Positions 1,926 through 26,536 of a DNA stretch of 29,263 bases are shown in pieces (position 1 is the stretch's first letter; each line of letters begins with the position of its first letter). The stretch comes from PVC group bacterium. Lineage in GTDB: Bacteria > Verrucomicrobiota > Kiritimatiellia > UBA8416. Both the position numbers and the translations under genes were made by a program. The notes below the pieces were generated by a model that made no database searches, had not been told where the DNA came from, and was given only the letters and a program-made list of their open reading frames with translations. The DNA lies in assembly GCA_003567005.1 (NCBI GenBank), contig PXBF01000048.1:1-29263 (forward strand), in the 5' to 3' direction.

Positions 1926-2960
1926 TTATATGTGACATGAATTGTCGCGTAGGGTGGCCACGGCTTCGTTGCGGGTGGTGATGGGTTTGTTGTATGCGCG
2001 GAACAGTTCTTGCATGCGTTGGTTGCCGAAGTCGAGGTTGTGGCTGACGGAATAGAGGGCGTAGAGGGAGGGATCGGTGAATGGGTGATCGAGGTTCAGC
2101 AGGTTGGAGATGGCGGATATGATGGTGCCATATACGTATCCACACCAGAAGGGGAGTGTGATGCTGCGGAAGGTTTTGCCTGGCAGATAGACATCAGCAA
2201 GGATTCGGTAGAATTGTTCGATGGTGGTGTGTTCGTTGTCGACGATGTTGATTGCCCTGCCGGCAGCTTCCGGGGCCGTTGCGGCAAGCAGGGTGGCGGT
2301 GGCGACGGTGCTGACATGTGCCAGGGGCCAGCGATTGGTTCCGCGCCATTTCCCGAAGTGGATGATACAGGGGGCATGACGTAGGAAGTTGACGATGCGG
2401 GGGGTGAGGGTTTTGTCGCCTTGGCCCCAGACTTGCGCGGGCCGGATGATGCTCCATTTTTCAGGGGGTAATGCGCGTTGAAGCATTTGTTCTGCCCGTA
2501 GCTTGTAAACCGGATACGGGTTACGGGGGCGCGGGTTACATGTCAGCTCTTCTTCCTGTTCGCCGTGATAGTCGCGCAGGCCATACACGTCTGTGGTGGA
2601 GATGAAGACAAACCGTTGGCAGTCCAGGGCGCGACTCATACGCACCAGGTTTTCGACGGCCTCGTAATTCGTTGCGCGAAAGGCACTGCGCCATCCGGTA
2701 TCCGAGGCGCGGGCGGCGCAGTGCACGATTGCGTCAAGTTTGGCTCCGTTTACAGCAAGTGTTTTTCCGATCTGATTACGAAATGTTTCTGTGTCTCGTA
2801 TGTCACCGCGTATATAGGTGATTTGCCCTTGGTGGGGCTTGATTGTTGCTGGGATTGTGCGGTGCACGAGTGCAAGCACGTGCCAGCCGTCGTCCAGGAA
2901 TGTGCGCATGATGTGTTCGCCCACGAATCCTGCTGCACCGGTTATGAAAACATGTTTCAT
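1926..2960 (-). CDS. NAD(P)-dependent epimerase/dehydratase-family (extended SDR) oxidoreductase; candidate 3-keto-sphingoid or ketolipid reductase
   Basis: Rossmann motif MKHVFITGAAGFVGEHI at the chosen start (M35 of the 378-aa ORF). The ATG overlaps the stop of the upstream alpha-oxoamine synthase (ATGA). It is the last gene of the minus-strand operon. Confidence 0.75.
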   Translation of the reverse strand: MKHVFITGAAGFVGEHIMRTFLDDGWHVLALVHRTIPATIKPHQGQITYIRGDIRDTETFRNQIGKTLAVNGAKLDAIVHCAARASDTGWRSAFRATNYEAVENLVRMSRALDCQRFVFISTTDVYGLRDYHGEQEEELTCNPRPRNPYPVYKLRAEQMLQRALPPEKWSIIRPAQVWGQGDKTLTPRIVNFLRHAPCIIHFGKWRGTNRWPLAHVSTVATATLLAATAPEAAGRAINIVDNEHTTIEQFYRILADVYLPGKTFRSITLPFWCGYVYGTIISAISNLLNLDHPFTDPSLYALYSVSHNLDFGNQRMQELFRAYNKPITTRNEAVATLRDNSCHI

Positions 2961-4222
2961 GGGATAAGACCGTATTTTCTGCCGCATTCGGCGAAGATGT
3001 TGAGTGCCTTGTCCATTTGTTCGCGGGTCAAACTGTTCATGATGCTGACTCGCAGGCGGCATTCCTTGCGCCGAACGGCGGGGTAGGTGACCACGTTAGT
3101 AAAGACACCTGCGTGCCGCAAGTCCCGCTGTAATGCGCCCAAGATGCTTTCGTTGCCGACTACCACGGGTAGGATGGCCGATCCGGTGCTGCCGAGTTTG
3201 AAGCCGAGTATTTGCAGATTCTGCTGCATGTAGTTGATATTATTCCACAGTTGTCGGCGTCCGGCAGTGTCGGTCTCGAGCAGTTTGAAAACCTCAATGA
3301 GACCGGCGATGGTTGGAGCAGGGATGCTAGTGGAAAAGAAGTACGTGCGGGCGAAAAAGCGCAGGTAGCGGACCATGGCGGAAGATCCGGCGCAATAGCC
3401 GCCGATCGCGCCGGGTGCCTTGCTCAGGGTTCCGCAGGTGAGATCCACATTGCCTTCGCAGTGAAAATGCTCGATCGTACCGCGGCCGGTCGCCCCAACA
3501 ACACCGAGGCCATGCGCATCATCAACCATAAGCCGGCAGTTGTAGGCTTTGGCCAGTGCAACGATTTGGTCCAGGGGGGCAAGATCGCCGTGCATGGAAA
3601 AGACGCCATCGGTGATAATAAGCCGTCCCTGTTGTTCGGCTGGCAGGGCTTTGAGAATCTTTTCCAGATGTTTCATGTTGTTGTGCATGTAGACTTTGAT
3701 GGTAGCGCCGGACAAGCGGCATCCATCAAAGATCGAGGCGTGATTGGCGGAATCATTGATCACGATATCACCAGGACCGCAGAGTGCGGAAATCACCCCT
3801 ATGTTGCCGGAATAGCCGCAGGGAAACATGATGGCATCTTCCGTTTTGTAGAAGCGGGCAATGCGCTCTTCCAGCTCGCGATGCAGCACGGAGGTACCCG
3901 CGTACAGCGAGACGGCACCCATGCCATAGCCAAATTCGTCGGTTGCCTTCTTGCTGGCCGCAATCACTTGCGGATGTGTTGTGATACCCAGATACGAGTT
4001 CGAGCCCAGCATGATGACATCGTGCTCTTGTCCGTCTTTTTCGCGGATGCCTACCTCGGCATTGGCAGCCCCGGTCAATGGCAGGCCGAGCCCGTCGATG
4101 TAGCCTGGATTGGTTTTGCGGATATAGGCATCGAGCCGCTCGACTTTATGAAAGATGTCATAGCGGCCTTGCTCGGGCACAAAGTCCTCGAAACGCATTT
4201 CCTGTTGATCGGTGTCCATCAA
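2957..4222 (-). CDS. PLP-dependent alpha-oxoamine synthase (serine palmitoyltransferase / KBL / BioF family)
   Basis: 421 aa. PLP lysine motif GTLSKA, LMVDDAHGLG, and glycine-rich GSNSYLG. Overall length and architecture fit Spt-like 2-amino-3-ketoacyl synthases. Start and stop overlap the neighbouring genes. Confidence 0.85.
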   Translation of the reverse strand: MMDTDQQEMRFEDFVPEQGRYDIFHKVERLDAYIRKTNPGYIDGLGLPLTGAANAEVGIREKDGQEHDVIMLGSNSYLGITTHPQVIAASKKATDEFGYGMGAVSLYAGTSVLHRELEERIARFYKTEDAIMFPCGYSGNIGVISALCGPGDIVINDSANHASIFDGCRLSGATIKVYMHNNMKHLEKILKALPAEQQGRLIITDGVFSMHGDLAPLDQIVALAKAYNCRLMVDDAHGLGVVGATGRGTIEHFHCEGNVDLTCGTLSKAPGAIGGYCAGSSAMVRYLRFFARTYFFSTSIPAPTIAGLIEVFKLLETDTAGRRQLWNNINYMQQNLQILGFKLGSTGSAILPVVVGNESILGALQRDLRHAGVFTNVVTYPAVRRKECRLRVSIMNSLTREQMDKALNIFAECGRKYGLIP

Positions 4223-5445
4223 TTGCCTTTCTTTTTGTGATAGCAGCGCAACGAGCGGTTATCGTCACAGTATATGGTGCAAAAATTGCAATTTGTACAG
4301 GCCGACCGGATGTCGGGATCCTGTTTGAGCTTGTTGGGGAAGTCCGGTTCGCAGATTAGCGGGCGGCATAAAGAGATACCATCGAGATTGTATTGCTCGA
4401 TGCATTGCCGGATATCGTTGATATCACGAATGCCGCCGACGGAGAAAACGGGCAGGGAGCAAGCTTGCTTGATGGCGGCGGCGGATGCGGCATTATAGGC
4501 ATGGCTGAAGGGCAGGAAGCGCTTGCGGTAGGTATCCGCACGCAGGCGTTTCCAGAGACCGCGAATGAGGGCAGGGATTTTATTGAACATGGGATTGACG
4601 TTGAGTACCAGATCGACGGGGCATGCCCCACGAATAATATTGAGGGCATATTCCATTGTGCCATAGCTGATTTCCACGGCATCAATACGCAATGGCTCCA
4701 AACGGCGCACAGTCTCGATGGTGTCTTCCTGCCGGATGCCGGGCACACGGTCTTCCGTTGCGCTTAGCTTTACGAGAATCGGATAATTGTGGCCGCAAGT
4801 GTTCTTTACTGCCTGTATGGTGCGTTCGAGAAAGAGGTTGCGATCCTTGCCCCATTGATCTTCGCGGTCATTGGTCCAAGGCGACAAGAATTGGTGGATC
4901 AGATAGCCGTGGGCGGCGTGCAACTGCACGCCATCGAATCCAGCATCCTTGGCACGCTTGGCGGCGTTTCCAAACTGTTGGATGATGCTTTCGATATGCG
5001 GCGTTTGCAGAACATGCGATTTTTCGCGGAAGTAGGAACATGCGCGTCGCGATGCACCATATACTTTGTTTTGGGTGATACGCTTGCGTGTCTGGCGTCC
5101 GGTGTGGGCGAGCTGCATGAATAGACAGGTTTCTGGATGCTGCTGCTTTACATGCTGAACGATGGCGTGCCAGGCGGCTTGTTTTTCGGGGGTATCGATG
5201 CCGCATTGGCGCGGCTGCATGGCGCGGCCCTCCTGCGAGATGTGGACGAACCCGGTGACGATGGTGCCTGTACCGCCAGCCGCGAGATTGGAATAAAGCC
5301 TTGCGAGGGACATCTCTGGGATGCCATCGGAATTTCCCATTCCCTCGTATGTTGCAGAGCGCACAATTCGGTTGGGCAACGTGATGGTACCCAGAGTCAG
5401 TGGGCTGAAGAGCTTTTCTATGGTGTCTTGCGTTGCTTGCTGCAT
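4219..5445 (-). CDS. Old Yellow Enzyme-family NADH:flavin oxidoreductase with C-terminal 4Fe-4S Cys cluster (FadH / 2,4-dienoyl-CoA reductase N-domain type)
   Basis: OYE N-terminus LFSPLTLGTITLPNRIVRSATYEG, HAAHGYLIHQFLSP, and a C-terminal CTNCNFCTIYC (CxxCxxCxxxC) cluster. Start is set at MQQATQD (5443-5445). The 172-codon upstream extension in the six-frame ORF reads through palindromic repeat A and the neighbouring gene and is treated as spurious. Confidence 0.75.
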   Translation of the reverse strand: MQQATQDTIEKLFSPLTLGTITLPNRIVRSATYEGMGNSDGIPEMSLARLYSNLAAGGTGTIVTGFVHISQEGRAMQPRQCGIDTPEKQAAWHAIVQHVKQQHPETCLFMQLAHTGRQTRKRITQNKVYGASRRACSYFREKSHVLQTPHIESIIQQFGNAAKRAKDAGFDGVQLHAAHGYLIHQFLSPWTNDREDQWGKDRNLFLERTIQAVKNTCGHNYPILVKLSATEDRVPGIRQEDTIETVRRLEPLRIDAVEISYGTMEYALNIIRGACPVDLVLNVNPMFNKIPALIRGLWKRLRADTYRKRFLPFSHAYNAASAAAIKQACSLPVFSVGGIRDINDIRQCIEQYNLDGISLCRPLICEPDFPNKLKQDPDIRSACTNCNFCTIYCDDNRSLRCYHKKKGN

Positions 5446-5446
5446 A

Positions 5447-5530
5447 TCTGCGGCTCGGCGGGGACGTCTCGCCCTACCTTCCGAGTTTGAAGGCATAGGG
5501 TAGGGCGAGCCGTCCTCGGCGAGCCGTGGT
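5447..5530. repeat. GC-rich palindromic intergenic repeat, copy A (about 29-bp stem, 19-nt loop)
   Basis: gcggctcggcggggacgtctcgccctacc / loop ttccgagtttgaaggcata / ggtagggcgagccgtcctcggcgagccg. The arms are reverse complements at about 25/29 positions. The copy lies between the PurM-like gene stop and the OYE gene start. Confidence 0.8.
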
Positions 5531-5579
5531 GGCGTAGTTACGCTTGGAGAATTCCGAGAAAGTTCTTTGATTGGTGCAT

Positions 5580-6572
5580 TCATGTTTTGGCGAGGTATTG
5601 TTGGGTGTATTCCTGTACGGCTGTGACATACGGTTCGAGTGCTGGGTATGCACGCGGGCAAGGGGGCGGCTCTGGAATAGGGCGATGCATTCCGGTGCTC
5701 CGGCTTGCATATATGCCCGGATCCGGCGACGGGATGATATCTGCAATCCGGGTGAATCCGGCTGCTTTCAGCATTTCGGTTTCCTCGTCGGTTAGTGCTG
5801 GTGTGGCAAAGAGTACTTCGTACTCGCCGGCACCGCCCACGATTGCGGCAAGTGCTTGCTCGCCAGCCGTTGCTGCGAAGGCCTGTACGGTTGCGGCGAG
5901 CGGGATATTTGCGAGTTGCAGGTTGATGCGCCAGTCGGGGTTGACGGTCTGCAGGCACCACAAGGCATCCAGGAGCCCGCCGCTGGTATCGATGCCGGCT
6001 GTGGCATAGGGGCGGATCAGGGACGTTTGCTTTGTGCGCAATTCAAATGCCGGAGTAGGCGCACCGGTAAGTACGGCGAGATTGGCATCACCAACCTCGC
6101 CGGTAATCCAAAGGTGTCGGGAGTCTGGACCGAAGCGCCGCAGGATTGGGGCCGGTGCGGTGACTGGACCTGCGGCAAAACCTGTATAGCGCCATGTCGG
6201 ACAGGTGGCCATATCTCCACCGAGTAAAAAGCATTGGGCGGCTTGCAACGTTGCGCTTATTCCATCGGTCAGTTGATCTGCAAACGCGGTGTCCGCATTC
6301 GAGGGGAGTGCGAGCGTATGCAGGAAGAATCGCGGTTCGGCCCCGGTTGCCAGAAGGTCGCTGATGGTGGCGGTGACCAGGTTTGCCCCAAGCTGGCGGG
6401 GATTCTCGGATGTGAAGTGGTCTTCTTCCGGGGTAAACTCATCCATGGTTAAAGCCCAGGTCTGTCCGGCGATGTCAACGAGTTCGGCATCGCTTTCGAA
6501 TAGCGCGTTTTGCTGTTGCGGGTCGCGTTTGAATTTCCCTGCGAATGAGCGGATAAAATCGTATTCGGTCAT
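5580..6572 (-). CDS. PurM-like (AIR synthase-related) ATP-dependent enzyme; ThiL/HypE/SelD superfamily
   Basis: 330 aa. The N-terminal pattern DAELVDIAGQTWALTMDEFTPEEDHF matches the PurM-like N-domain (D-x-A ... TTD ... HF). It also has GGDMA. The ATG overlaps the stop of the upstream kinase gene. Confidence 0.65.
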   Translation of the reverse strand: MTEYDFIRSFAGKFKRDPQQQNALFESDAELVDIAGQTWALTMDEFTPEEDHFTSENPRQLGANLVTATISDLLATGAEPRFFLHTLALPSNADTAFADQLTDGISATLQAAQCFLLGGDMATCPTWRYTGFAAGPVTAPAPILRRFGPDSRHLWITGEVGDANLAVLTGAPTPAFELRTKQTSLIRPYATAGIDTSGGLLDALWCLQTVNPDWRINLQLANIPLAATVQAFAATAGEQALAAIVGGAGEYEVLFATPALTDEETEMLKAAGFTRIADIIPSPDPGIYASRSTGMHRPIPEPPPCPRAYPALEPYVTAVQEYTQQYLAKT

Positions 6573-7621
6573 TACGTGTCTTCCTGTCTCTTTCCTTCCT
6601 CTGCGGCTCGGCGGGGACGCCTCGCCCTACCGGTCGGAGCTGAAGGTGTTGGATAGGGCGAGCCGTCCTTGGCGAGCTGTGGCACGTCTGGAAAGGACTT
6701 GGCATTACATACGCCTCCACAGATCAAGTTTAGCGCTTGTGGCAGCAAGTCAATCTGAATTGGCAGCCAGCCGCGTGGGTCGCCATCGAACTCGACGGCT
6801 TGCGACGTGTTGGCTTCCAGTCGGACGGATGTACCGGTTCGCATAAATACTGCCGGTGATGCTGTAGCGCGTCCGGTGTAGAAGCCCGGGAAAATGCGGC
6901 AGAGGCCTAGTGGCGTGCTGTCGTGAATGGCAACGACGGCAAGTTGTCCGTCAGTTGGCTGCAAGTCTATATCCAGTTTCAATCCTGAAGCAATATAAGG
7001 GTTTTTGAGAATGGCGATATGATTGAAGGATGTGATAGGTAATATTTCATTGTCCAGAACCAGCTTGCAGGGCACGGATTTACTGGTGCATATGGCGCGC
7101 ATGACGCCGGCCCCGGTTCCGAGTGTATCGCCGAGCCATCTGCGGTGACGGTTGGCAAAGGCAGCCACCGTTGCGCCAAGGCCGATGTTGCAACTGCAGC
7201 CAAAGTGTGCGTTGACAGGGGTGGTATCCACGGACGGTAGATATTGTATGCGGCATGCGTCCACGGCGCGTATCTTGCCGTGTAGAAGGGTTTGCAGTGC
7301 CTTCTGTGGATCGACCGGAATGTTGTGGAATCGACAGAAGTCCGGGCTCGTCCCTGCATACAGTACCCCCATGACGAGTTCGGGGTTGCCGGAGAGCAGG
7401 ATGCCGTCGAGAACTTCATTGATGGTTCCGTCGCCACCGACTGCCACAACCGTGCAGGCGCCTCGCGTCTGGCGCGCTACTTCGCGGGCATCGCCCGCCC
7501 CGGTGGTTATGACGGTTTCCAGATCAATGCTGGCTTTACGCAATGCCGCCAGCCAGGGGTCCCAGCGTTTGCGCCCTTTGCCGGAACGCGCTGACGGATT
7601 CATGACCAGCTTCATTTTCAC
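6572..7621 (-). CDS. Diacylglycerol kinase catalytic-domain family lipid kinase (YegS / sphingosine-ceramide kinase-like)
   Basis: 349 aa. DAGK_cat signature VVAVGGDGTINEV and an N-terminal MKLVMNPSARSGKG. The last roughly 35 codons are encoded by palindromic repeat B. The true C-terminus is therefore uncertain. Confidence 0.75.
   Translation of the reverse strand: MKMKLVMNPSARSGKGRKRWDPWLAALRKASIDLETVITTGAGDAREVARQTRGACTVVAVGGDGTINEVLDGILLSGNPELVMGVLYAGTSPDFCRFHNIPVDPQKALQTLLHGKIRAVDACRIQYLPSVDTTPVNAHFGCSCNIGLGATVAAFANRHRRWLGDTLGTGAGVMRAICTSKSVPCKLVLDNEILPITSFNHIAILKNPYIASGLKLDIDLQPTDGQLAVVAIHDSTPLGLCRIFPGFYTGRATASPAVFMRTGTSVRLEANTSQAVEFDGDPRGWLPIQIDLLPQALNLICGGVCNAKSFPDVPQLAKDGSPYPTPSAPTGRARRPRRAAEEGKRQEDT
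6600..6682. repeat. GC-rich palindromic repeat, copy B, embedded in-frame at the 3-prime end of the lipid kinase CDS
   Basis: About 85% identical to copy A over about 85 bp (gcggctcggcggggacgcctcgccctacc ... tagggcgagccgtccttggcgagctg). Same orientation as copy A. Confidence 0.8.
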
Positions 7622-8904
7622 GGGTATATTCCCAGTTTCTCGTAGAGGGTTGTGGGTTCACCGCGCTTCCAGTCCTTGATAAGTTCCTGCGTGATGTGCC
7701 AGGGCAACGGCGTGCGTTCGAGCTTATGTTCGGTGAATAGCTTGTGAATGGCAGCGGCTTGCGTGCAGCAAAGCCAGTCGGCGCATGGGATGTCGAAGTA
7801 GCTGCGCATCCGTTGAAAGATGACGGAGAACGGTTCTTCGTTCACGTTGCCAAATGAGATGTTGAGAAATTCGCAGGGTTGTACTTCGCCGCTGGCCCCG
7901 ATGTAGAAGCGGTCGACCCCGCCCGCCGTGCATCCCAGCACGTGGCGTTGTTCTTCGAACACCTGGGCGGCGAGTGATGGATAATCGTGCATGCGGGAGC
8001 TGTTATAGCGTACATGTTCCTCTTGGATGCGGGCGACGAGGTCGTTTTCTGTCTGCATGTTGGTTTCGCGTCCGAGCCATGCGCCGGATGGCTTGGGATG
8101 AATGAGCTGCACGTAATCGCAATCCAGCTCGCGCGTGAAATCCATCAGCTTGTCCAGTCCGCCCTGCCGGATTTCGTCTTCGGAGAGAACCGAGTTGCAG
8201 GTTGCCACGAGATTAAGGTCCCTGCATGCGCGCACGGCATCGCAGGCAATATCGAAAGATCCTTGCTTGCGTGTGAAGCTATCATGCACGGCCGGGTCAG
8301 TGGAGTGGATTGAGACCATGAGTCCGAAAAGTCCGGCTGCTTTCAATTCTTCCAGCATGCCTGGTTTGATATTGGCACCCGTGGTATTGATCCAGATCTC
8401 GCTGCGTGCATCCAGTGCCTGTACGAGCTTCAGGAGCCGTGGGTAGCGGATGAATGGTTCGCCGCCTTCTATATCGAACATGGCTACCCCGGCATCGCGT
8501 ACCTGCAGGGCGGTTTGAATCATGGCGTCTTCGTCGATGTCGACGGCCGGATCGTTTTTCTGGTAGCAGTGCTCGCAGTCGTACGAGCAGGCCTTGGTCA
8601 TGGAATATACAATCGTTGTGGGACCGGGCGGTGTTTTCAGCAGCTTACTTTCGATGGCATAAAAGAAAGCGGGCGAGGGATAGGCAGGCAGGTAAAGGTG
8701 TAATTTGTAGCCATTGAAGACACGCACCGGCTTGTTGTGACGGAAGACCAGCAGCAACTGCAGGGCGCGTCGCAGAAAGCGGCAATATGCCAATGGGGAG
8801 GAAAAGTGTTTTGGGCGCAGTGCGTAGTAAAACGGAATATGAACGATAATACGCACGTATAGCAGCAGTTTTCGGAATCCTGTCAGGAAATGGGCATTTT
8901 TCAT
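7618..8904 (-). CDS. Radical SAM enzyme with N-terminal hydrophobic/membrane-associated extension and C-terminal Cys-rich (SPASM/twitch-like) region
   Basis: 428 aa. CxxxCxxC radical SAM motif CSYDCEHC after about 100 hydrophobic/basic residues. The downstream GGE-like FDIEGGEP fits SAM binding. The C-terminal Cys run is GCTAGG...PCEFLN...CADWLCC. ATGA overlap with the kinase gene. Confidence 0.8.
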   Translation of the reverse strand: MKNAHFLTGFRKLLLYVRIIVHIPFYYALRPKHFSSPLAYCRFLRRALQLLLVFRHNKPVRVFNGYKLHLYLPAYPSPAFFYAIESKLLKTPPGPTTIVYSMTKACSYDCEHCYQKNDPAVDIDEDAMIQTALQVRDAGVAMFDIEGGEPFIRYPRLLKLVQALDARSEIWINTTGANIKPGMLEELKAAGLFGLMVSIHSTDPAVHDSFTRKQGSFDIACDAVRACRDLNLVATCNSVLSEDEIRQGGLDKLMDFTRELDCDYVQLIHPKPSGAWLGRETNMQTENDLVARIQEEHVRYNSSRMHDYPSLAAQVFEEQRHVLGCTAGGVDRFYIGASGEVQPCEFLNISFGNVNEEPFSVIFQRMRSYFDIPCADWLCCTQAAAIHKLFTEHKLERTPLPWHITQELIKDWKRGEPTTLYEKLGIYP

Positions 8905-9872
8905 GATTTGGCATCCTTGTATTGGTCGAACAGAAATCCGATAAACACATAGCTGGCACTGAAGAGATACAGGGCCAAGGTTCCATTAAAGATGGCAATC
9001 AGGGCGATTTGCCCTGCGACACAAGCGCGGATATTGGTTGCCAGACTGAAGTAGGTGCGGTCGCCGACCGGATTATGGAAGAATAGCAGTGCCGTCCAGA
9101 GTTGTAGGAAGAGGGTCATTACCGCGCAGAATACGAAGTCGCGCACAAAGAGAATGTCACGCAGCGGCAGCCATCCGGCCCGTGCGAACAGCAGGAACAG
9201 CAACGTTGGCAGAAACGCGCCGATCAATCCGGCATAACGTGCCACATTCAAGCCGTAGCGCACGACAAATGTATTTTTTCCGGCAGCCTTGTCGCCCTCA
9301 TAGTCCTTGAAGTAGGTGTAGAACGTCATGAGTCCGTTCATGAAGGCCACAAGGATAAATCCGCTAATGCGGTTGCTGGTAAACACAGGAGTCGGCATGG
9401 GCCCGGCAGCCAGGAAACCGTAGACGGTACACATGGCGATGGACAGCCCGAAAATTGCGTTGCCGGTAAGCGACCAGGCTTTCGCATACTCATACAGAAT
9501 GTTCAGCAAAACGCCGAGGATGACCGGTACTACAGACCAAGGGTTCAGCAACCAGGAAATCGCCACCACGCCTGCCATGAGCACGCCGGATACAATCAGG
9601 GCATTGCGCGGATTCAGTTCGCCGGTAACCATGGGGCGGTTGGGGGCGTTGATGCGGTCTTCCGGCAGCCCTAGGTAATCGTTGATAATCTGGTTAATGC
9701 CCCAGCTCAGGAAAAGCATGATCAACAAAAGGGATCCGCGTGCGTGGCTGTAATGATCCGGCATGGCGAACTGGTAGAAGGATACGCCAACCCAGCCGGC
9801 AATGCCGGTAATGAAAGCATAGTAAAGCCGCATTGATTTGATATAAGCCTTCCAAAAGCTGATTGTTAACAT
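8901..9872 (-). CDS. UbiA-superfamily membrane prenyltransferase
   Basis: 323 aa and polytopic. First Asp-rich motif NDYLGLPEDRINAPNRP, second motif FKDYEGDKAAGKNT. It has 8-9 predicted TM helices. Confidence 0.75.
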   Translation of the reverse strand: MLTISFWKAYIKSMRLYYAFITGIAGWVGVSFYQFAMPDHYSHARGSLLLIMLFLSWGINQIINDYLGLPEDRINAPNRPMVTGELNPRNALIVSGVLMAGVVAISWLLNPWSVVPVILGVLLNILYEYAKAWSLTGNAIFGLSIAMCTVYGFLAAGPMPTPVFTSNRISGFILVAFMNGLMTFYTYFKDYEGDKAAGKNTFVVRYGLNVARYAGLIGAFLPTLLFLLFARAGWLPLRDILFVRDFVFCAVMTLFLQLWTALLFFHNPVGDRTYFSLATNIRACVAGQIALIAIFNGTLALYLFSASYVFIGFLFDQYKDAKS

Positions 9873-12719: not shown

Positions 12720-13220
12720 ATGGAGTCTCACGAAATCATGCGGCGTGCAATCGGGAATGTAGGTGTCAAGGCTGTCGCAGCCGATATGGCACTGTCTTCC
12801 TCGCTGGTCTACAAGTGGTGTCAGCCCAAAGGGGATGACAACAGCGGCGCGGATAATCCCTTAGACCGGATTGCCGAACTTTGTCAAATCACGGGCGATG
12901 TATCCCCGATTGTCTGGCTGTGTGAGCAAGTGAATGGCTTCTTTGTTGAGAACGTGACCCCGGATGCGGCAGCAGCAGATGTTCGGGCCTTATCCATGAC
13001 GCAACGAATACTCAAGGAGTTTTCGGAGATGCTGGATATGGTTTCGCGGAGTATTGCGCATGAGAATGGGATTGATCCTGACGAGGCGCGTGCCATCCGC
13101 GTGGAGTGGGAGGATCTGAAGCGTGTTTCCGAACAGTTTGTGCTGGGCTGCGAAATGGGGAGTTATCTTCCGGATACGTACAAGCAACGACAACGAGTAA
13201 AACAAGGAGAGAAGGCATGA
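12720..13220 (+). CDS. Small HTH DNA-binding protein (phage CII-like helix-turn-helix)
   Basis: VGVKAVAADMALSSSLVYKWCQ resembles the lambda CII HTH (AEAVGVDKSQISRWKRD). GGGAGAG SD 7 nt upstream of the ATG at 12720. The stop overlaps the pspA start (ATGA). Confidence 0.45.
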   Translation: MESHEIMRRAIGNVGVKAVAADMALSSSLVYKWCQPKGDDNSGADNPLDRIAELCQITGDVSPIVWLCEQVNGFFVENVTPDAAAADVRALSMTQRILKEFSEMLDMVSRSIAHENGIDPDEARAIRVEWEDLKRVSEQFVLGCEMGSYLPDTYKQRQRVKQGEKA

Positions 13221-13897
13221 GCATCATGGCACGTCTAAAACGGGTAACAGTGGGTCGGATGGAGGCATTTCTTTCATCTGTTGAAGATCCGGAGACGGTA
13301 TTTCCGCAACTTGTGCGTGAGATGGAAGAGCAGGTACGTTTGGCAACGGACGCCGAGGCCAAGGCTATGGCGGCTGTGAAGTCCGCCGAGCGGACGCGCG
13401 ACCAGGCATCAGCCAAGCTGGAAAAGATGACAGATGGTGCGCGTTCCGCATTGGAGCAGGGTGACGAAGCCACGGCTCGCGAGGCCATTGCGGCCCAAAT
13501 CCAGCTTGAAGATGAGGTGGCGCGCTGTGCGGATGCCGTAGCGAATGCGAATCAATCGTACAGTGATGCGCACGAAACGCGCGTGCTCACGCAAAAGCAG
13601 TTGGATGAAGTACGTGCGAAGAAGGATGAAATTTTGAATCGCGCTCGCGTGGTGCGGTCGCAGGAAAAAATTCAGCGCACGGTGCAGGGGCCGGCGGCTT
13701 CTACTGGCAGCATTCTGGATGCGGTGGCGCGCATGGAGTCTCAGGTAGAAGAGCGTGAAGCTGGTCTTGCTGTACGTAAGGAGTTGGGACAGACGGGGGC
13801 CGGTGGTACAGCCTCGCTGGAGCAACGGATCGAGGATTTGCACAAGCAGGCTGAGATTGATCGCCGGATGGCAGCATTAAAAGGAAAACAATCATAG
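13217..13897 (+). CDS. pspA: PspA/IM30 (Vipp1) family membrane-stress protein, paralog 1
   Basis: The N-terminus MSIMARLKRVTVGRMEAFLSSVEDPETVFPQLVREMEEQV matches the PspA consensus (MGIFSRF...AEDPEKML...IRDMED). It is a coiled-coil protein with an AAGGAGAGAAGG SD. Confidence 0.85.
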   Translation: MSIMARLKRVTVGRMEAFLSSVEDPETVFPQLVREMEEQVRLATDAEAKAMAAVKSAERTRDQASAKLEKMTDGARSALEQGDEATAREAIAAQIQLEDEVARCADAVANANQSYSDAHETRVLTQKQLDEVRAKKDEILNRARVVRSQEKIQRTVQGPAASTGSILDAVARMESQVEEREAGLAVRKELGQTGAGGTASLEQRIEDLHKQAEIDRRMAALKGKQS

Positions 13898-13906
13898 CGG
13901 AGTATC

Positions 13907-14581
13907 ATGGCTATACTTGATCGTATTCATAGAATCGCCCGCGCGAATCTGGCGCAGTTGCTGGATCGCGTGGAGTCGCCCGAGGAGGAAATCACAAGCC
14001 ACATTCGTGCGCTGGAAGATGCGGCGCGCGAGGCCAAGGATGCCTTGGCGGGTTTTGCGGTTACCGTCAAGCGGCAGGAACAAGCCAACGAGGCGTTGCG
14101 CAAGTCATGCGGGGAATGGCAAGCACGCGCCGAGGCTGCGATTGAAGCTGGCGATGAAGCGACGGCTCGTCGTGCGTTGGGAGAACGCCTGAAAGCCGAG
14201 GAGCGCCTGGCAGCGTTCGAGCCCGTATTGGAGGGGCGTCGGAAAACGTATGACGAGTTGCGTGACGATCTGGTACGGATTCACGACCAACTGCATGAGG
14301 CACGGGCCAAGCTCATGGACCTGAGAGCCCGTAAGCTGGCAGCCGATGCGGAGAAGTCGATGTCGCAGCGGGTCGCCACATTCGACCGTGGAACACCGGC
14401 AGGAATGGAACGGTTGGAGGATGAAGTTCTTGCTTCGGAAGCTTCGGCTGAAATCGAGCGTGATATGCGTGGGGTACTGACGCCGTTATCCGAAAAGCTG
14501 GAGCGAGATGTGCAGGAGCGTAAAGTGGACAGCGCATTGGAGGCATTGAAGGCGCGCCTTGGAAAGGATGCCAAGGAATGA
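13907..14581 (+). CDS. PspA/IM30 family protein, paralog 2
   Basis: MAILDRIHRIARANLAQLLDRVESPEEEITSHIRALEDA has the same family signature. 224 aa, coiled coil. Confidence 0.85.
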   Translation: MAILDRIHRIARANLAQLLDRVESPEEEITSHIRALEDAAREAKDALAGFAVTVKRQEQANEALRKSCGEWQARAEAAIEAGDEATARRALGERLKAEERLAAFEPVLEGRRKTYDELRDDLVRIHDQLHEARAKLMDLRARKLAADAEKSMSQRVATFDRGTPAGMERLEDEVLASEASAEIERDMRGVLTPLSEKLERDVQERKVDSALEALKARLGKDAKE

Positions 14582-17439: not shown

Positions 17440-17600
17440 TCGGTTTTTGAAGTAGGGGTGCCCCAGTCCCTTGGGGCCCCCCCGTGCTTGAAGTGTAGAT
17501 GATTCGCGAAGTAAGTGGAACTGCAGCGCGCTCGGTGGTGCCGGGGTGGGTCAAGGGACTGACCTACCCCTACGACGAGGGTCGGCACAAAATGAAGATA
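17440..17600 (+). ncRNA. Candidate structured RNA / 5-prime leader upstream of the giant AAA+ gene
   Basis: Long-range complementarity: gtaggggt (17452-59) pairs with acccctac (17566-73), and cagtcccttg (17464-73) pairs with caagggactg (17552-61). Together they enclose about 80 nt of GC-rich sequence (ggggcccccccgtgc). The region is non-coding in all frames. Confidence 0.25.
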
Positions 17601-17630: not shown

Positions 17631-20600
17631 GTGAGTGATAACAAAGTAGACGAGAAAAAGGCAGTTGCTTCGGAGCAGTCGCAGGAGGCGCTGGAGGGCG
17701 GCTCGTACGAAATTATTCAGCGCCGGTTGCAGCAGCAGGCTGTGGCTTTGGAAGAGCGCCTGGATAAACTGAATGCCGCTCGCCGAGATGTATTCGGTGC
17801 CGTTGAAACCCGCTTGGTCGGAACGGAACGTATTTTAACGGGAAATAACTGTACCCCACGTGATATGGTTTCCATAGGGGATCGGATTCTCTTTGGCTAC
17901 AATGTCCAGTTGGGGTTGCGCAAGGACATGACGCTGGCCGATGTTTTCGGCGTGTATGTGAAAGAAAAATCCGGTTTCGTAGAACAGGGGCTGGACTTGA
18001 TTGCGGACGAGGGGTTCGAACGCGATTTTGCCGAGCTTTATCGCTACTACAAGAATACCACCTTCGTGAAATTTGCTGAACAGGGACCGAGTTTGTTCAT
18101 GGTTTTCCGGGTGGGGCGCGGTGTTTCCGATATCAAGACCTTCAAGTGGCTTGTGCGAGATGATGGTTCGCTCCGATATGTGGATAACCGTAGCGAGCAT
18201 GAGTATCGTTACCCTCCGCAGCATGAATTTGAATGGACCAAAGCGGACCGTGACATGCATCGTTCGGGGACATTCCCGCATATATCCATAGACGATCGTA
18301 TTTTCGTGGAAACGTCAAATGGCACGCTGACCATCAAGGTGGAGGACAACACATCCACAGGCGAAGGGATTTACGCGGAACCGGTTGATGACTCGGACCA
18401 GACACTGGATGATGCCGAAATCTATTTTGCATTGGTGGGGCATCTGATTTTATTGCGCATTAAACCGTATCGTGAGGATACGTTCCGGCATATTGTATTC
18501 AGCGAAAAAGTGCAGCGTGCGAGTCGCGTGGATGCGATTGAGGGTGCTTGCGTTTTGCTTCCGGAAGATCATGGCATTATTTTCTCGAATGGCTATTTCC
18601 TGCAGACGGGCGAATATAAACAGTTTGACAGCGTTCTTACGGATATGTTGTTCGATCATCGGATTGTATCGCCCAATGGTGAAGATTACCTGTACGTTTT
18701 CTACAACCGTGAATCCGGTGTGTACGTGTTGTTGTCGTATAATATTATCGAACAGCGTGTGGACACACCGATTGAATGCCATGGTTACAGCCTTTTTGCG
18801 GATGGCCGGTTGATCTACTTCAAGGCACAGGAGGAACCCACAAAGTCACATGTTGTGCAGATCTGGCAAACCGCCTATGCGTCCGAGGTTGAGTCGGTTG
18901 CCGGACGTCAGGATAGCATGCTTTTCAAAGTAGGGAATCGCGATATCGTGCGTTGCATGGCAGGATGCCGCACGCTATTGGGGCTCCTGCGGCGTGAGGA
19001 TTCCTACGCGAATCTGTATTTGGACATTATGCGACAGTCTACCGACCTGCTGGATAGTTACTTCTGGATCAAGGAAGAGGAAGCTTTTGATCCCGGCTCT
19101 GTGTTGACGGAAATCAAGGCTACGGCCTCGGCCGCGATTGATGAGTTTGAGCGCGTGCAGCAATTGCGCAACACGGCGGCCCGCCAGTTGGAGGAGCAGG
19201 AGTCGGCTACGAAGGCGCTTCTGAACAAGCTGCGCCAGTTGCGACATGAGGATATCCAGTCGCATGTTAACGCGTTGGCATCGTTACGAGAGCTCACTGG
19301 CAAAGTGATTGGGCTGCGCGATGTGCGCTACATGGATCTTGCGCGTGTGGAGGCACTCGAGAAAAACATAAAAGAGTGGCAGGAGCGTCAGGCCCGGCAG
19401 TGTGTGGAATTCCTGCTGCAGGATGATGCGATGTCGCCCTACAGCGCTCGCATCGAAGCCATGGAAGCCCGCGTGGCGGACTTGGACAAGGTCAGTGAGG
19501 CCGAAGAGCTGCGCAAAGAGGCTGAGGCGGCTGGCAGTGAGCTGGAAATGCTGATCGAGACGGTCACGAACCTGAAGATCGATGATGCCACGCAACGAAC
19601 GGCAATTATTGAAAGTATATCCAGTCTGTTTGCCGGTCTAAACCGTCTGCGCGCGGCGTTGCAAAACAAGCGTAAGCAGCTTGGCGCATCCGAAGGTGCG
19701 GCTGAGTTTGCCTCGCAGTTGAAGCTTCTGGATCAAGCGGTTGTCAATTATCTGGATGTTTGTGATACGCCTGCGAAATGCGAGGACTATCTGAGCCGTA
19801 TCATGGTGCAGATCGAGGAGTTGGAAGGGCGGTTTGCCGAGTTTGATGAATATATTTCCAAGCTTACCGACCAACGTGAAACGGTTTATAATGCTTTCGA
19901 GGCGCGTCGCCTTTCGCTTGTGGAAGCGCGTAACAAGCGTGCTGATACACTGCAGAGCAGTGCTACACGGATTCTAAACAGTATCCGGTCGCGTGTGGCC
20001 ACGATGAAGACGGTCGACCAAATCCACGGATATTTTGCGTCTGACATGATGATTGAGCGCTTGCGCGGCATTGTTTCGCAGCTTATAGAGCTCGAAGATC
20101 CTGTTAAGGCTGACGATATCCAGACGAAGCTTAAGAGTTTGCGCGAAGATGCGGTACGTCAATTACATGACCGACAAGAGCTTTTTGTCGGTGACGAGAA
20201 TGTGATCCAGTTCGGTCGTCACCAGTTCTCGGTTAACACACAAGCGCTTGACCTGACTATCGTTCCGCGTGGCGACACGATGATGCTGCATCTGACGGGG
20301 ACGAATTTCTTCGAGGCGGTTACCGATCCTGAATTTCTGGCAACGAAAGATGCCTGGGAGCAAGAACTGGTATCCGAAACGCCGGATGTATACCGGGCCG
20401 AATATCTGGCCTATTTGATGTTGAGCGAGGCTGAGAAGCAGGCTGGGGATGCGGGCGCCGGTGCGCTTGCGGATTTATCCCCGGAAGCATGGCTGGAGAA
20501 AGTGCGTATCTTCATGGCACCACGTTATGCGGAAGGCTATCAGAAGGGCATCCACGATGAGGATGGCGCATTGCTGCTGCAAGCACTTTGGGAGATTCGA

Positions 20601-22907
20601 TCGGCGATTGGCCCCTTGCGGTATCCGGGGCGTGCGCGTGCGTTAGCCTTGGTCTTCTGGAAATGGTTTGCTGGTGCGGATGATTACGATGCCATGCTTG
20701 CGCGCTTGGAAGGATTCGGGGAAAGTAACCGACTCTTTCGTGGCAATCGACGATACCAGGCCTTGATCGAGGATTTGCGCGCCTTGATTGCCGACTTCGC
20801 CGTTGACTCGAAAAACTTTGACGCGGCCTTTGCGGGAGAAGCGGCCGAATATCTTTTTGAAATCATATCAGATGGTTCAGGGCATCCGGCGAGTGCAGAG
20901 GCAGCCCGTTTATGCAAAGCATTTGAAGGGCACTTGAAAAAACTGGCGGGGGCGGAAGCGTTTACGGATGCCCGTGCGCGGTTGTCGGACAATGCTTGCG
21001 CAGAATATTCGATGGTGTACGAATGGTTGCGGGCATTTGTGGAAAGTACCGAGGCGGAGGCACCGGGCGACTCCCTGATGGAATCGGCCGCTTTGCTCTC
21101 CACCCATACATTTGATCCGGCCCTGGCTTCGAATGTGAAGTCATTCCGGGTGATCAAAGGGTTGCGAGGTAGCCATCCAAGAATCACGGATGGCGTCCTG
21201 GAACTTGACTATAGTGCGTACATAACGCGTATGAAACATTTTGTGGAGAATGTGGTTCCACGTTTCCTGCAATGTGCTGCGCTGAAAAAGAGCCTATTGG
21301 CCCGCTCACGTGAGGAGATGCGGCTGGATGAGTTCAAACCGCATGTGATGACATCATTTGTGCGGAATCAATTGATTGATCGCGTCTATCTGCCATTATG
21401 CGGCGATAATCTGGCCAAGCAAATCGGTACGGTGGGATCCTCCAACCGTACGGATCGCTCCGGTATGCTGATGCTCATTTCGCCGCCGGGTTACGGTAAG
21501 ACAACGCTTATGGAATACATTTGCAACCGCCTTGGCTTGGTGTTTATGAAAATTAACGGCCCAGCCATCGGGCACTTGGTGACATCCCTTGATCCGGCCG
21601 AGGCACCCAATGCTGCCGCACGCGAGGAGCTGCACAAGCTCGGGCTGGCGCTTGAAATGGGGGATAACGTGATGCTGTATGTGGATGATATTCAGCATTG
21701 CAACCCGGAATTCTTGCAGAAGTTTATTTCGCTGAGTGATGCGCAGCGCAAGGTTGAAGGCGTCTACAAGGGGCGTACGCGGACATATGATCTACGTGGC
21801 AAGAAGGTGGCCGTGGTGATGGCGGGCAACCCCTATACTGAGAGTGGTGAGAAGTTTCGGATTCCCGACATGTTGGCCAACCGTGCCGACATTTACAATC
21901 TGGGTGATATTCTCGGGGATCATATCGAACCTTTCAAGTTAAGCTTCCTGGAAAATGCGCTGACATCGAACCCGGTGCTGCACAAGTTGGCGGCGGGTCA
22001 CCGCAAGGATATTTATTCTGTGATTCGGATGGCGGAAAGCGGTTCTTCGGACGGTATCGAATTAGAAGGCAGTTATGGGAAGGAAGAGTTGTCCGAGATC
22101 CTTTCCGTGATGAAGAAGATGTTACGGGTACGGGATGTCGTGCTCCGCGTAAACGAGGAATACATATACTCGGCTGGGCAGCAAGATGAATTCCGTACCG
22201 AGCCTGCTTTTCGGTTGCAGGGTTCCTATCGAAACATGAACCGTATGGCAGCCAAGGTAGAAGCCGTGATGAATGATCGCGAGCTTGAGACGATGATTTA
22301 TTCCGAGTACGAGAACGAGGCTCAGACGCTGACAACGGGTGCCGAGGCCAATCTGCTCAAGTTCAAGGAGATTCTCGGGCTGTTAAAAGAGGATGAAGCT
22401 GCACGCTGGGAAGAGATCAAGCGGACGTATGCACGCCATCAGATGTTGCGCGGAGCCAAGGAGGGCGATCCAGCCAGCATGGCAGTGGCACAGCTTGCCG
22501 GTGTCGGGCAAGGATTGACGGATATCCGCGACTTGATCAAAGAGGGGATCCATGTCGAAAAGCCGTCTGCGGTGCAGACGGGACTGACCGAAGAGACGCT
22601 TGCGCGTATCGAGAAAATGCTGGCTAGCAAGAAGCCCTCGGCTCCGGCAGGCAAGTTGGTTGCCGAGACACGGCTGGCAGCCGACACCTGGGAGAAGCTT
22701 TCTAGCGTTCTCCGAGATACGCAACGGACGAATCATCTTGAAGCCCGGTGCCGTTCACTCGAGGCGATTTGCAAGAAGTGGCGTGAGGAGTTCCTACTGC
22801 CCTTGCATAAACAGTGCAACAACGAGTCCATGGAGAATGCGATCACCGTTCAGCATCTGGAAAGTATCTTGGCCGAAATCGACACGTTTCTCGATCTAGG
22901 CAAGTAA
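17631..22907 (+). CDS. Giant (1758 aa) multidomain protein: N-terminal globular region, long central coiled coil, C-terminal AAA+ ATPase of MoxR/AAA_5 (dynein-related) type
   Basis: GTG start, with an in-frame TGA just upstream. Walker A LISPPGYGKTTL, Walker B VMLYVDDIQHCNPEF, sensor VVMAGNPYTESGEKF. Residues about 470-1000 are heptad/coiled-coil rich. Confidence 0.8.
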   Translation: MSDNKVDEKKAVASEQSQEALEGGSYEIIQRRLQQQAVALEERLDKLNAARRDVFGAVETRLVGTERILTGNNCTPRDMVSIGDRILFGYNVQLGLRKDMTLADVFGVYVKEKSGFVEQGLDLIADEGFERDFAELYRYYKNTTFVKFAEQGPSLFMVFRVGRGVSDIKTFKWLVRDDGSLRYVDNRSEHEYRYPPQHEFEWTKADRDMHRSGTFPHISIDDRIFVETSNGTLTIKVEDNTSTGEGIYAEPVDDSDQTLDDAEIYFALVGHLILLRIKPYREDTFRHIVFSEKVQRASRVDAIEGACVLLPEDHGIIFSNGYFLQTGEYKQFDSVLTDMLFDHRIVSPNGEDYLYVFYNRESGVYVLLSYNIIEQRVDTPIECHGYSLFADGRLIYFKAQEEPTKSHVVQIWQTAYASEVESVAGRQDSMLFKVGNRDIVRCMAGCRTLLGLLRREDSYANLYLDIMRQSTDLLDSYFWIKEEEAFDPGSVLTEIKATASAAIDEFERVQQLRNTAARQLEEQESATKALLNKLRQLRHEDIQSHVNALASLRELTGKVIGLRDVRYMDLARVEALEKNIKEWQERQARQCVEFLLQDDAMSPYSARIEAMEARVADLDKVSEAEELRKEAEAAGSELEMLIETVTNLKIDDATQRTAIIESISSLFAGLNRLRAALQNKRKQLGASEGAAEFASQLKLLDQAVVNYLDVCDTPAKCEDYLSRIMVQIEELEGRFAEFDEYISKLTDQRETVYNAFEARRLSLVEARNKRADTLQSSATRILNSIRSRVATMKTVDQIHGYFASDMMIERLRGIVSQLIELEDPVKADDIQTKLKSLREDAVRQLHDRQELFVGDENVIQFGRHQFSVNTQALDLTIVPRGDTMMLHLTGTNFFEAVTDPEFLATKDAWEQELVSETPDVYRAEYLAYLMLSEAEKQAGDAGAGALADLSPEAWLEKVRIFMAPRYAEGYQKGIHDEDGALLLQALWEIRSAIGPLRYPGRARALALVFWKWFAGADDYDAMLARLEGFGESNRLFRGNRRYQALIEDLRALIADFAVDSKNFDAAFAGEAAEYLFEIISDGSGHPASAEAARLCKAFEGHLKKLAGAEAFTDARARLSDNACAEYSMVYEWLRAFVESTEAEAPGDSLMESAALLSTHTFDPALASNVKSFRVIKGLRGSHPRITDGVLELDYSAYITRMKHFVENVVPRFLQCAALKKSLLARSREEMRLDEFKPHVMTSFVRNQLIDRVYLPLCGDNLAKQIGTVGSSNRTDRSGMLMLISPPGYGKTTLMEYICNRLGLVFMKINGPAIGHLVTSLDPAEAPNAAAREELHKLGLALEMGDNVMLYVDDIQHCNPEFLQKFISLSDAQRKVEGVYKGRTRTYDLRGKKVAVVMAGNPYTESGEKFRIPDMLANRADIYNLGDILGDHIEPFKLSFLENALTSNPVLHKLAAGHRKDIYSVIRMAESGSSDGIELEGSYGKEELSEILSVMKKMLRVRDVVLRVNEEYIYSAGQQDEFRTEPAFRLQGSYRNMNRMAAKVEAVMNDRELETMIYSEYENEAQTLTTGAEANLLKFKEILGLLKEDEAARWEEIKRTYARHQMLRGAKEGDPASMAVAQLAGVGQGLTDIRDLIKEGIHVEKPSAVQTGLTEETLARIEKMLASKKPSAPAGKLVAETRLAADTWEKLSSVLRDTQRTNHLEARCRSLEAICKKWREEFLLPLHKQCNNESMENAITVQHLESILAEIDTFLDLGK

Positions 22908-22957: not shown

Positions 22958-23731
22958 TTACTGTTCGCGGATGCGGTAGAAGCCGATGGGGTCCAGTACG
23001 GGGATTTCGCCTTTGCGTCCGTCGTCGGTGATCCGCATGGGGACGATGATTGGTTGGAATGGTTCGTGCATCAGGTCCCGGGTGTACTCCACGACATATC
23101 CGACTCCTGGTTCGCTATTCCAGGTTAAGGAGAATCTTGCGGGGTCGGCTGGGTCGCGCGCAAGTCGACTGACAATAGTGGGAGGGGATTCGGGATCGCG
23201 CGGGGTATAGGTTCCCGCAGTACCTGCTCCTGTTTCAAGGTCGGTCTGACTATAGGTTGCATCTTCCGCGTCAGGAGGTTCATAAATATAAGTCACGGCT
23301 TCAAATGCAATCGTCCATTCTTCTATAGCTTCTGATGAGCTACCGATCGAGCCTCGGCTCTCATGGTCAACCAGTCTGGCAGACTCCAGAATGATATGGA
23401 TCGCGTTGGTTTCCGCTGCGTCATTGTTGCGTTCGCCGGAGAAAGCTAATTCGATACGCCCGAATTGGGTTCCCGTGGAAAGGTCCTGTATCAGCAATGG
23501 CGTTGCTTTGTCCAAGTTTCGCTGAACCTTAATATGTGCCACTGCATTTGTCGTTTGCCCGGGAAGAAGGGAAAGTTCATGTAGAGCGCTCCAGCCGTTA
23601 TCATCCGGTGGTGTGTTGGCAAAGCCTGGGCGGGCGGGGTCGAAGCGTATCCAGGCCCTCTCGGCATAACCCGTTTGTATGGTAACTGCTGTCACCACAC
23701 ATGCTGTTACGATTAGTAGGCAACGTTTCAT
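22958..23731 (-). CDS. Secreted Hcp-like domain protein with C-terminal extension
   Basis: Signal peptide MKRCLLIVTACVVTAVTIQTGYA. Hcp-like core HIKVQRNLDKATPLLIQDLSTGTQFGRIELAF. ATGA coupling to the upstream Hcp-like gene. Confidence 0.5.
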   Translation of the reverse strand: MKRCLLIVTACVVTAVTIQTGYAERAWIRFDPARPGFANTPPDDNGWSALHELSLLPGQTTNAVAHIKVQRNLDKATPLLIQDLSTGTQFGRIELAFSGERNNDAAETNAIHIILESARLVDHESRGSIGSSSEAIEEWTIAFEAVTYIYEPPDAEDATYSQTDLETGAGTAGTYTPRDPESPPTIVSRLARDPADPARFSLTWNSEPGVGYVVEYTRDLMHEPFQPIIVPMRITDDGRKGEIPVLDPIGFYRIREQ

Positions 23732-26401: not shown

Positions 26402-26536
26402 GGTAGGGCGACGCGTCTCGCGGAGCCGGTGACCGTGGATGGAGCATATGTGTTCCATGGATTGTCCGTAGGTCGTTCAATTGGCTTAGAATGCTCGTTT
26501 CACGGTCATGGCTCACCGAGGACGGTTCGTCCTACC
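26402..26536. repeat. Related palindromic element, copy C, with the same arm family but an 83-nt loop
   Basis: Arms ggtagggcgacgcgtctcgcggagccgg and ggctcaccgaggacggttcgtcctacc. Both are similar to the arms of copies A and B (for example ggctcaccgaggacgg vs ggctcgccgaggacgg). The element sits in the leader of the second mgtE. Confidence 0.6.

Follow-up and report, generated by a model that had tools for sequence, protein, structure and literature searches.

REP-like palindromic dimers at two consecutive junctions of a compact operon in a PVC group bacterium

Palindromes at consecutive gene junctions

The stretch of DNA analyzed here (29,263 nucleotides; hereafter the window) is contig PXBF01000048.1 from the genome assembly of a bacterium of the Planctomycetes-Verrucomicrobia-Chlamydiae (PVC) group, affiliated with the Kiritimatiellia. 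An operon on its minus strand encodes, among other products, a DAGK_cat/YegS_C lipid-kinase-family protein (6572-7621; 349 codons), an AIRS-domain protein (5580-6572), and an old yellow enzyme (OYE) type FMN oxidoreductase with two candidate starts (4219-5445 or 4219-5583). Two palindromes, copy A (5447-5529) and copy B (6600-6682), are located at the two junctions between these genes, such that the AIRS gene lies between them. Each is a head-to-head dimer of a short unit of the repetitive extragenic palindrome (REP) type.

A repeat search of the window recovered A and B as an 83-nt direct repeat with 83% identity, close to the approximately 85% given in the initial annotation, which had recognized them as a pair of similar long palindromes. 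The inverted arms of each copy are 28 nt long, 89% complementary, and 20 nt apart, in good agreement with the imperfect palindrome with a 29-bp stem and a 19-22-nt loop described previously. In copy A, the arms are at 5451-5478 (unit on the minus strand) and 5499-5526 (plus), with the spacer at 5479-5498; in copy B they are at 6604-6631 (minus) and 6652-6678 (plus), again with a 20-nt spacer. The head of the four arms is GTAG, with ATAG in one. When up to three mismatches were allowed, the arm consensus matched the window five times (both arms of A, both arms of B, and 26510-26535), and the same search of the shuffled window gave no matches in 100 shuffles.

On the mRNA (minus) strand, predicted folds had energies of -50.1 kcal/mol for copy A (z -6.4 versus shuffles) and -43.0 kcal/mol for copy B (z -3.0), so that the folding check proposed at the outset found both hairpins to be far more stable than shuffled sequence. 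The plus strand folds better still (A, -66.9 kcal/mol; B, -55.5 kcal/mol), because several mismatches turn into G.U pairs. An independent assembly from the JGI (L012) matched positions 5921-8735 of the window, including copy B, with 99.96% identity and no gaps, indicating that copy B is not an assembly artefact. This near-identical copy was reached through the protein cluster of the kinase, an exact look-up of the window's own kinase having given no entry.

The kinase terminates in ...DGSPYPTPSAPTGRARRPRRAAEEGKRQEDT (in a longer view, ...CGGVCNAKSFPDVPQLAKDGSPYPTPSAPTGRARRPRRAAEEGKRQEDT), and its stop codon (TAA, 6572-6574) overlaps the ATG of the AIRS gene, preserving the TAATG coupling that had been noted at this junction. 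Its C-terminal tail comprises 45 codons (6575-6709) and includes the peptide ...DGSPYPTPSAPTGRARRPRRA...; roughly 28 of these codons, corresponding to residues ~314-341, come from palindrome B, which revises the earlier figure of about 35 last codons supplied by the element. Copy A is open in the same element frame as B, as had also been noted, and translation of the OYE from ATG 5583 (MNAP..., MNAPIKELS...) would extend the protein by 46 residues encoded across copy A. The stop codon of the AIRS gene (TGA, 5580-5582) overlaps this start (ATG, 5581-5583). The AIRS/OYE junction keeps an ancestral overlapped start, ATGAATGCACCA (MNAP), of which 12 nt are identical to L002, one of the contigs that encode the two closest kinase homologs. 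Copy A had been described as intergenic. This is correct if the OYE starts at ATG 5445, but the frame is also open from ATG 5583, and the intergenic status of copy A is doubtful because this open frame runs from the conserved ATGA-overlapped start. Copy A may thus be coding, as an N-terminal extension of the OYE.

Comparison with orthologs revealed that neither copy belongs to the ancestral operon. Among 120 listed homologs of the kinase, most were ~304 amino acids long, and the tail was seen only in the window's own protein. All other homologs listed end at, or a few residues from, ...LNLIGG, with the few longer ones (P0067 and four others) carrying unrelated extensions. Homologs with 85%, 73%, and 62% identity, together with five that are more distant, stop at this motif (LNLIGG-xx), which bears out the earlier proposal that the C-terminus of the kinase is repeat-derived. 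In L001 and L002, the contigs of the two closest homologs, the kinase/AIRS junction is an ATGA overlap, as is the AIRS/OYE junction in L002; the operons of the more distant L133 and L134 are equally compact. No REP arms were found in L001 or L002. DNA alignment against these two contigs revealed a clean extra block of 135 nt at the kinase/AIRS junction of the window (6575-6709, minus strand), which consists of copy B and ~52 nt of other flank, including the purine-rich GAGGAAGGAAAGAGACAGGAAG directly upstream of the AIRS ATG. A segment of 138 nt (5446-5583, minus strand), comprising copy A and ~55 nt of other flank, is absent from the AIRS/OYE junction of L002. Both extra segments are a multiple of three in length, are stop-free in the frame used, and leave the TAATG and ATGA overlaps intact. 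Both copies are missing from the orthologous operons, whose genes overlap at these junctions, which makes A and B derived additions (+138 and +135 nt, respectively).

One of the longer kinase homologs, P0067 (367 amino acids), ends in an unrelated C-terminal extension of ~60 residues (...GRRRTENEPSFPRTGTLAGRDRPRARSVPSFPNS...) with a high content of Arg, Pro, and Ser, possibly a second case in which a repeat has supplied the end of this gene.

A GTAG-headed repeat family and associated transposase genes

The consensus of the arm is GGTAG-GGCGAG-N-CG-TCCY-CG-N'-CGAGCC-G, comprising a GGTAG head, a stem of nine positions, and a TCCY loop. The canonical variants, which make up two of the four A/B arms, are predicted to form stem segments of 3 bp and 4 bp that are separated by a GA/AG internal loop and capped by a tetraloop, leaving the GTAG head unpaired; the two variant arms have a different or only a weak predicted fold. 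Because the energies of single arms are weak relative to shuffles (z -1.5 to +0.3), the support for the single-arm stem comes from covariation. In a set of 43 unique arms, position 11 pairs with position 22 as G-C in 30 and as A-T in 10, and position 12 with position 21 as G-C in 20, C-G in 15, and T-A in two. The tandem G.A/A.G is present in 39 of these arms, and head positions 2 to 5 are G (41), T (35), A (40), and G (43).

A scan of one genome per species, with the hairpin tip as the query, identified A-type hairpins in eight genome assemblies, seven of them labelled Verrucomicrobia, Opitutia, Kiritimatiellia, Lentisphaerales, Victivallales, or Lentisphaerae and one unclassified. Copy A itself was not among the hits, so the assembly that contains it lies outside the collection scanned. 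The loops between the arms in the scanned metagenome-assembled genomes (MAGs) are unrelated and range from 17 to 34 nt. Since the same arms carry unrelated loops, the conserved unit is the 28-nt arm and not the 83-nt palindrome. The initial annotation had taken the palindrome of about 80 bp as the unit; it is instead a 28-nt GTAG-headed REP that occurs in head-to-head and tail-to-tail dimers. The proposal of a dispersed REP- or MITE-like (miniature inverted-repeat transposable element) family was borne out by the presence of the same arm in these MAGs and by the detection of an exact 24-mer of the arm on at least 120 metagenome contigs from many environments. A profile search (nhmmer) of 133 fetched loci (694 kb) identified 244 arms, and neighboring arms within 200 nt of each other formed 82 inverted pairs (60 tail-to-tail and 22 head-to-head) versus five direct pairs. 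Arms also occur singly and in alternating arrays.

The exact 24-mer was also identified on two contigs of the IMG/VR viral class (L136 and L137), one of them 34,019 nt long, as is a matched rumen metagenome contig. These may be prophage or misclassified host DNA.

Genes for REP-associated tyrosine transposases (RAYTs) were searched for in the same 694 kb by tblastn, with the protein of locus L003 and its homolog in L008 as queries. Six were identified, each with an arm within ~60 nt. In L003, from a Verrucomicrobia MAG, an open reading frame (ORF) at 6491-6958 scored 86.3 bits against NCBIfam model NF047646 ('REP-associated tyrosine transposase'; cut-off, 80). Its product contains the HUH motif MPDHAHGI and scored 22.5 bits against Pfam Y1_Tnp, just below the cut-off of 23. 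At this locus (6436-7157), one arm lies to the left of the RAYT gene and four alternating arms (+ - + -) lie to the right within 180 nt (6976-7157). In L008 (5484-6137), a complete head-to-head dimer stands on each side of the RAYT gene, and the two dimers have the same spacer.

The four-arm array of L003 resembles a bacterial interspersed mosaic element (BIME) that adjoins the transposase. In L008, the RAYT ORF continues into the downstream REP and ends in ...AGDGSSGTTRPTD.

Arms that are covered by long open frames were found inside three Pfam-verified proteins. In L091 (3563-5089, minus strand), a homolog of the glutamate-synthase small chain (GltD) has an insertion of exactly ten REP-encoded residues, EVGRGVPAEP, relative to PDB 7mfm_I. 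In L087 (3290-4744, minus strand), an arm encodes residues 252-261 within the Pfam domain of an MFS transporter, and in L068 (527-3766, plus strand) an arm encodes residues 161-170 in the N-terminal domain of an AddB homolog. Four other long open frames over arms (L070, L048, L015, L094, L071 group) had no Pfam match and were not counted as real genes.

These features are those of known GTAG REP or REPIN-RAYT systems (Nunvar, 2010; Bertels and Rainey, 2011; PMC3733652), in which REPIN, a term defined in PMC3337134, refers to the head-to-head and tail-to-tail dimers. Shared characters include a 28-nt imperfect palindrome with an unpaired GTAG head, the predominance of inverted dimers with direct pairs being rare, a RAYT flanked by its own units, and the location of some units in ORFs. 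GTAG-tagged REPs, head-to-head and tail-to-tail dimers, REPs that flank RAYTs ('REPtrons'), and intragenic REPs have all been described (Di Nocera et al., 2013; PMC3733652). In that survey, the verrucomicrobium Opitutus terrae and Rickettsia conorii (RPE-4 and RPE-6) had the largest numbers of REPs wholly inside ORFs, intragenic dimers coded for 20-30 residues, and many units were located at the N- or C-termini of ORFs, with the caveat that the N-terminal cases may be untranslated. The peptides encoded by the O. terrae families differ from those of the present family. Searches for the consensus GTAGGGCGAGSCGTCCYCGSCGAGCC gave no match in PMC3733652, neither in its text nor in its supplements (which cover RPE-4 and RPE-6), nor in any relevant paper among those searched. 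The present family may thus be undescribed, although its kind is known. Its members depart from the name REP in their location, given that B lies inside the kinase ORF and A inside the OYE open frame. This does not exclude membership, because intragenic units are a documented minority in GTAG families (PMC3733652).

Resemblance to Rickettsia palindromic elements (RPEs) and to REP/BIME elements, suggested in the initial annotation, proved apt in that in-frame residence in genes is shared. RPEs (Ogata et al., 2000, cited in PMC3733652) are in-frame palindromes in protein-coding genes that are tolerated as an extra peptide, and N-terminal cases are known. The likeness is limited to this behavior. 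RPEs are probably unrelated to the present family in sequence and have a different host, RPE-1 is longer and has no known associated transposase, and RPE inserts are internal, whereas A and B are terminal extensions at operon junctions (internal insertions of the present family occur in other loci). Among themselves, the RAYTs identified here share only 44-56% identity while the arms are near-identical across several PVC classes, a combination in which the present family is unlike other REPIN-RAYT systems.

Most descriptions of such systems present them as confined to a lineage and passed on vertically. The BIMEs of Escherichia coli consist of alternating REP units at gene ends within operons, where they can form stable mRNA hairpins. 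Alternating units (cf. L003, 6976-7157) and gene-end sites in operons are thus shared with the present family, but BIMEs are extragenic and located downstream of stop codons, whereas B is upstream of a stop codon and A is downstream of a start codon, both inside open frames.

Origin and possible effects of the junction elements

We consider it quite probable that A and B are head-to-head, REPIN-like dimers of a PVC-wide, RAYT-associated GTAG REP family that were added at two operon junctions and are now in-frame. By analogy with characterized systems, the family would be mobilized in trans by a RAYT (an HUH/Y1 enzyme), and the dimers could have arrived via RAYT-type single-strand transposition or via recombination between REPs. 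Transposition by a RAYT may likewise have occurred in the genome of the window. The two dimers were added at successive junctions of an operon in which overlap of neighboring genes (ATGA) is the normal state; because such junctions provide no intergenic space, the inserts fall within the 3' end of the kinase gene and, with ATG 5583 as the start, the 5' end of the OYE gene. The surviving copies are stop-free in the frame used and leave the TAATG and ATGA overlaps intact, and ribosomes could therefore pass the hairpins with translational coupling to the next gene being kept. Only read-through copies that terminate beside the downstream start would escape polar effects. Such a filter would explain why A and B are both in frame and at protein termini; in this reading the tails would actually be translated, and selection would have favored in-frame copies. 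The additional tails, rich in Arg, Pro, and Gly, would be harmless at protein termini, with the cost amounting to 45 extra residues at the C-terminus of the kinase and, for an OYE translated from ATG 5583, 46 at its N-terminus. The elements are regarded here as tolerated selfish DNA, and any effect of the mRNA hairpins (-43 to -50 kcal/mol) on decay or relative expression would be secondary.

Several observations weigh against this reading. No RAYT gene was found in the 29-kb window. That chance alone should leave ~46 codons open across a GC-rich palindrome is not unlikely; two of the three frames per strand do not contain the TAG of the GTAG head. An OYE that starts at ATG 5445, just beyond palindrome A, would have its native length (MQQATQDT-IEKLFSPL versus MNAPSEQS-IEILFSPL in L002). 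The REP dimer accounts for only ~83 of the 135 and 138 extra nucleotides, and the similarity of the remaining flanks of A and B to each other is not significant. A longer mobile unit that fills the 135 and 138 nt was considered and rejected, given that these flanks are no more alike than shuffled sequences. The evidence for target-site duplication is also weak: the two GTAATG sequences that flank B, separated by 133 nt, are not significant as a target duplication, and at A a flank duplicate (ATGCACCAATCAAAG versus ATGCAGCAAGCAACG) has 12 of 15 matches, a value that was reached by 15 of 500 shuffles and is therefore marginal.

These duplications, the second of which repeats the start region, are what might be expected of a classical MITE, that is, a deletion derivative of an insertion sequence (IS) with a DDE transposase, terminal inverted repeats, and target-site duplications. 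An overall inverted repeat with a variable center also fits such an element. Nevertheless, this origin is very improbable. Each arm is a covarying stem-loop with a GTAG head, and single arms, tail-to-tail pairs, and alternating arrays exist as well; RAYTs are the only transposase genes found beside arms, and no parent IS was found; the duplications themselves are not significant at B and marginal at A. Still less credible is that the kinase tail is ancestral protein, or an artefact of assembly or frameshift, with the palindrome being incidental. In the public record, the annotated protein (P0001, 347 amino acids) does include the tail, but the ends of the close and distant homologs, the clean 135-nt block in the DNA alignment, and the identical sequence in the independent assembly L012 refute this explanation, and the arm sequence itself recurs across hundreds of unrelated contexts. 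An integron origin was likewise considered. By inspection only, with no pattern search run, no GTTRRRY core of attC sites was seen in the arms, no integrase domain was seen among the scanned ORFs of the window, and the flanking genes form a conserved syntenic operon and not integron cassettes.

A further explanation is that the hairpins were selected as regulatory RNA (stabilizers, attenuators, or decouplers) that sets how strongly the kinase, AIRS, and OYE genes are expressed relative to one another. REPs play such a role in some E. coli operons, where REP-dependent mRNA stabilization or translation control has reportedly been found (Newbury et al., 1987; Liang et al., 2015). The high stability of both hairpins on the mRNA strand and their placement at successive junctions on either side of a single gene, AIRS, are consistent with this, and REPs have been hypothesized to act in mRNA stabilization and termination, in the account given in PMC3733652. 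However, orthologous operons in four other organisms have overlapping junctions without hairpins, and the hairpins, if translated, would be continually unwound. Selection on the mRNA predicts that the mRNA should be the better-folding strand, contrary to the more stable fold of the antisense (plus) strand; across 79 dimers, the relationship between the better-folding strand and local GC skew was not significant (Spearman -0.17, p 0.14). A scan of positions 5300-6800 for promoters and terminators revealed neither a promoter nor a T-run terminator at the hairpins. Screening of the whole window against Rfam identified no family at gathering scores, and relaxed thresholds yielded only sub-threshold matches to eukaryotic microRNA-precursor models, which amount to generic long hairpins. 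A search for transfer RNA and transfer-messenger RNA found none. A selected regulatory role is considered unlikely, the mRNA stabilizer or attenuator function raised in the initial annotation was not supported, and the addition and tolerance of mobile REP dimers is the preferred explanation.

The near-identity of the arms across classes, set against the divergence of the RAYTs, is relevant to the question of whether inheritance of such systems is always vertical. A bolder scenario combines horizontal spread of REPIN-RAYT, as opposed to the vertical-only picture, or extreme long-term co-conservation, with the retention of dimers in compact operons as translated, ribosome-unwound linkers that preserve coupling and that may have been co-opted for the tuning of expression or as functional Arg/Pro-rich tails. 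To this combination we assign a low probability. The elements reveal no new kind of system, given that in-gene REPs are already known, but they provide a clean natural case of selfish palindromes that enter an operon without intergenic space and leave translational coupling intact, and they place on record a REP/RAYT family with a wide distribution among uncultured bacteria of the Verrucomicrobiota type. For annotation, the 45-residue tail of the kinase, and possibly the 46-residue leader of the OYE, should be treated as repeat-derived and not as ancestral protein. PVC proteins and 'hypothetical proteins' that contain GRARRPRRA, VGRxVPxEP, DGSPYP, or AARRGRLALP are probably the product of REP read-through.

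Other repeats and genes in the window

The window contains three dimers in total, or six arms in 29 kb, one of which is degenerate. The third dimer, copy C (26402-26536), is intergenic and located upstream of an MgtE gene. It is a tail-to-tail REP dimer with its GTAG heads outward, with the left arm at 26402-26431 (plus) and the right arm at 26510-26536 (minus); the left arm is degenerate with a 1-nt deletion, and the stretch between the arms is self-complementary. The initial annotation had viewed copy C as a third copy with the same arms and a larger loop. It is indeed of the same family, but it is not a hairpin of the A/B type with a larger loop, since its arms are in the opposite, tail-to-tail arrangement.

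A second, different inverted repeat was identified at 17452-17573, just upstream of a DUF3686/AAA_5 ATPase gene (17631-22907; 1758 amino acids). Its arms (GTAGGGGTGCCCCAGTCCCTTGGGGCC... and its partner) are 31 nt each, 74% complementary, and 60 nt apart, with GTAG ends outward. In each arm, a GTAG head accompanies a separate small hairpin; the two hairpins share a GTCCCT loop but differ in the stem (GCCCCA/TGGGGC versus GGTCA/TGACC). This repeat may represent a second REP family in a tail-to-tail arrangement; no copy of it was found in the other fetched loci.

The operon interrupted by A and B is tightly overlapped and extends from 1926 to 9872 on the minus strand. In addition to the kinase, AIRS, and OYE genes, it comprises genes for a UbiA prenyltransferase (8901-9872) and a radical SAM/SPASM protein (7618-8904) upstream, and a class I/II aminotransferase (2957-4222) and an NAD epimerase (1926-3062) downstream, all on the minus strand. 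The same operon recurs in many PVC and other MAGs (e.g., L001, L002, L133, and L134), with the version in L133 lacking the OYE gene. It might encode a pathway for a modified isoprenoid or lipid.

Elsewhere in the window, two tandem PspA/IM30 genes (13106-14578), an Hcp-like (T6SS_HCP) gene (22958-23728), and two paralogs of the MgtE magnesium transporter near the contig ends (524-1885 and 26578-28002) were identified. GC skew in 1-kb bins ranged from +0.03 to +0.30 in all but one bin, whatever the strand of the genes. The whole contig is thus probably located on one replichore, with the plus strand being G-rich.

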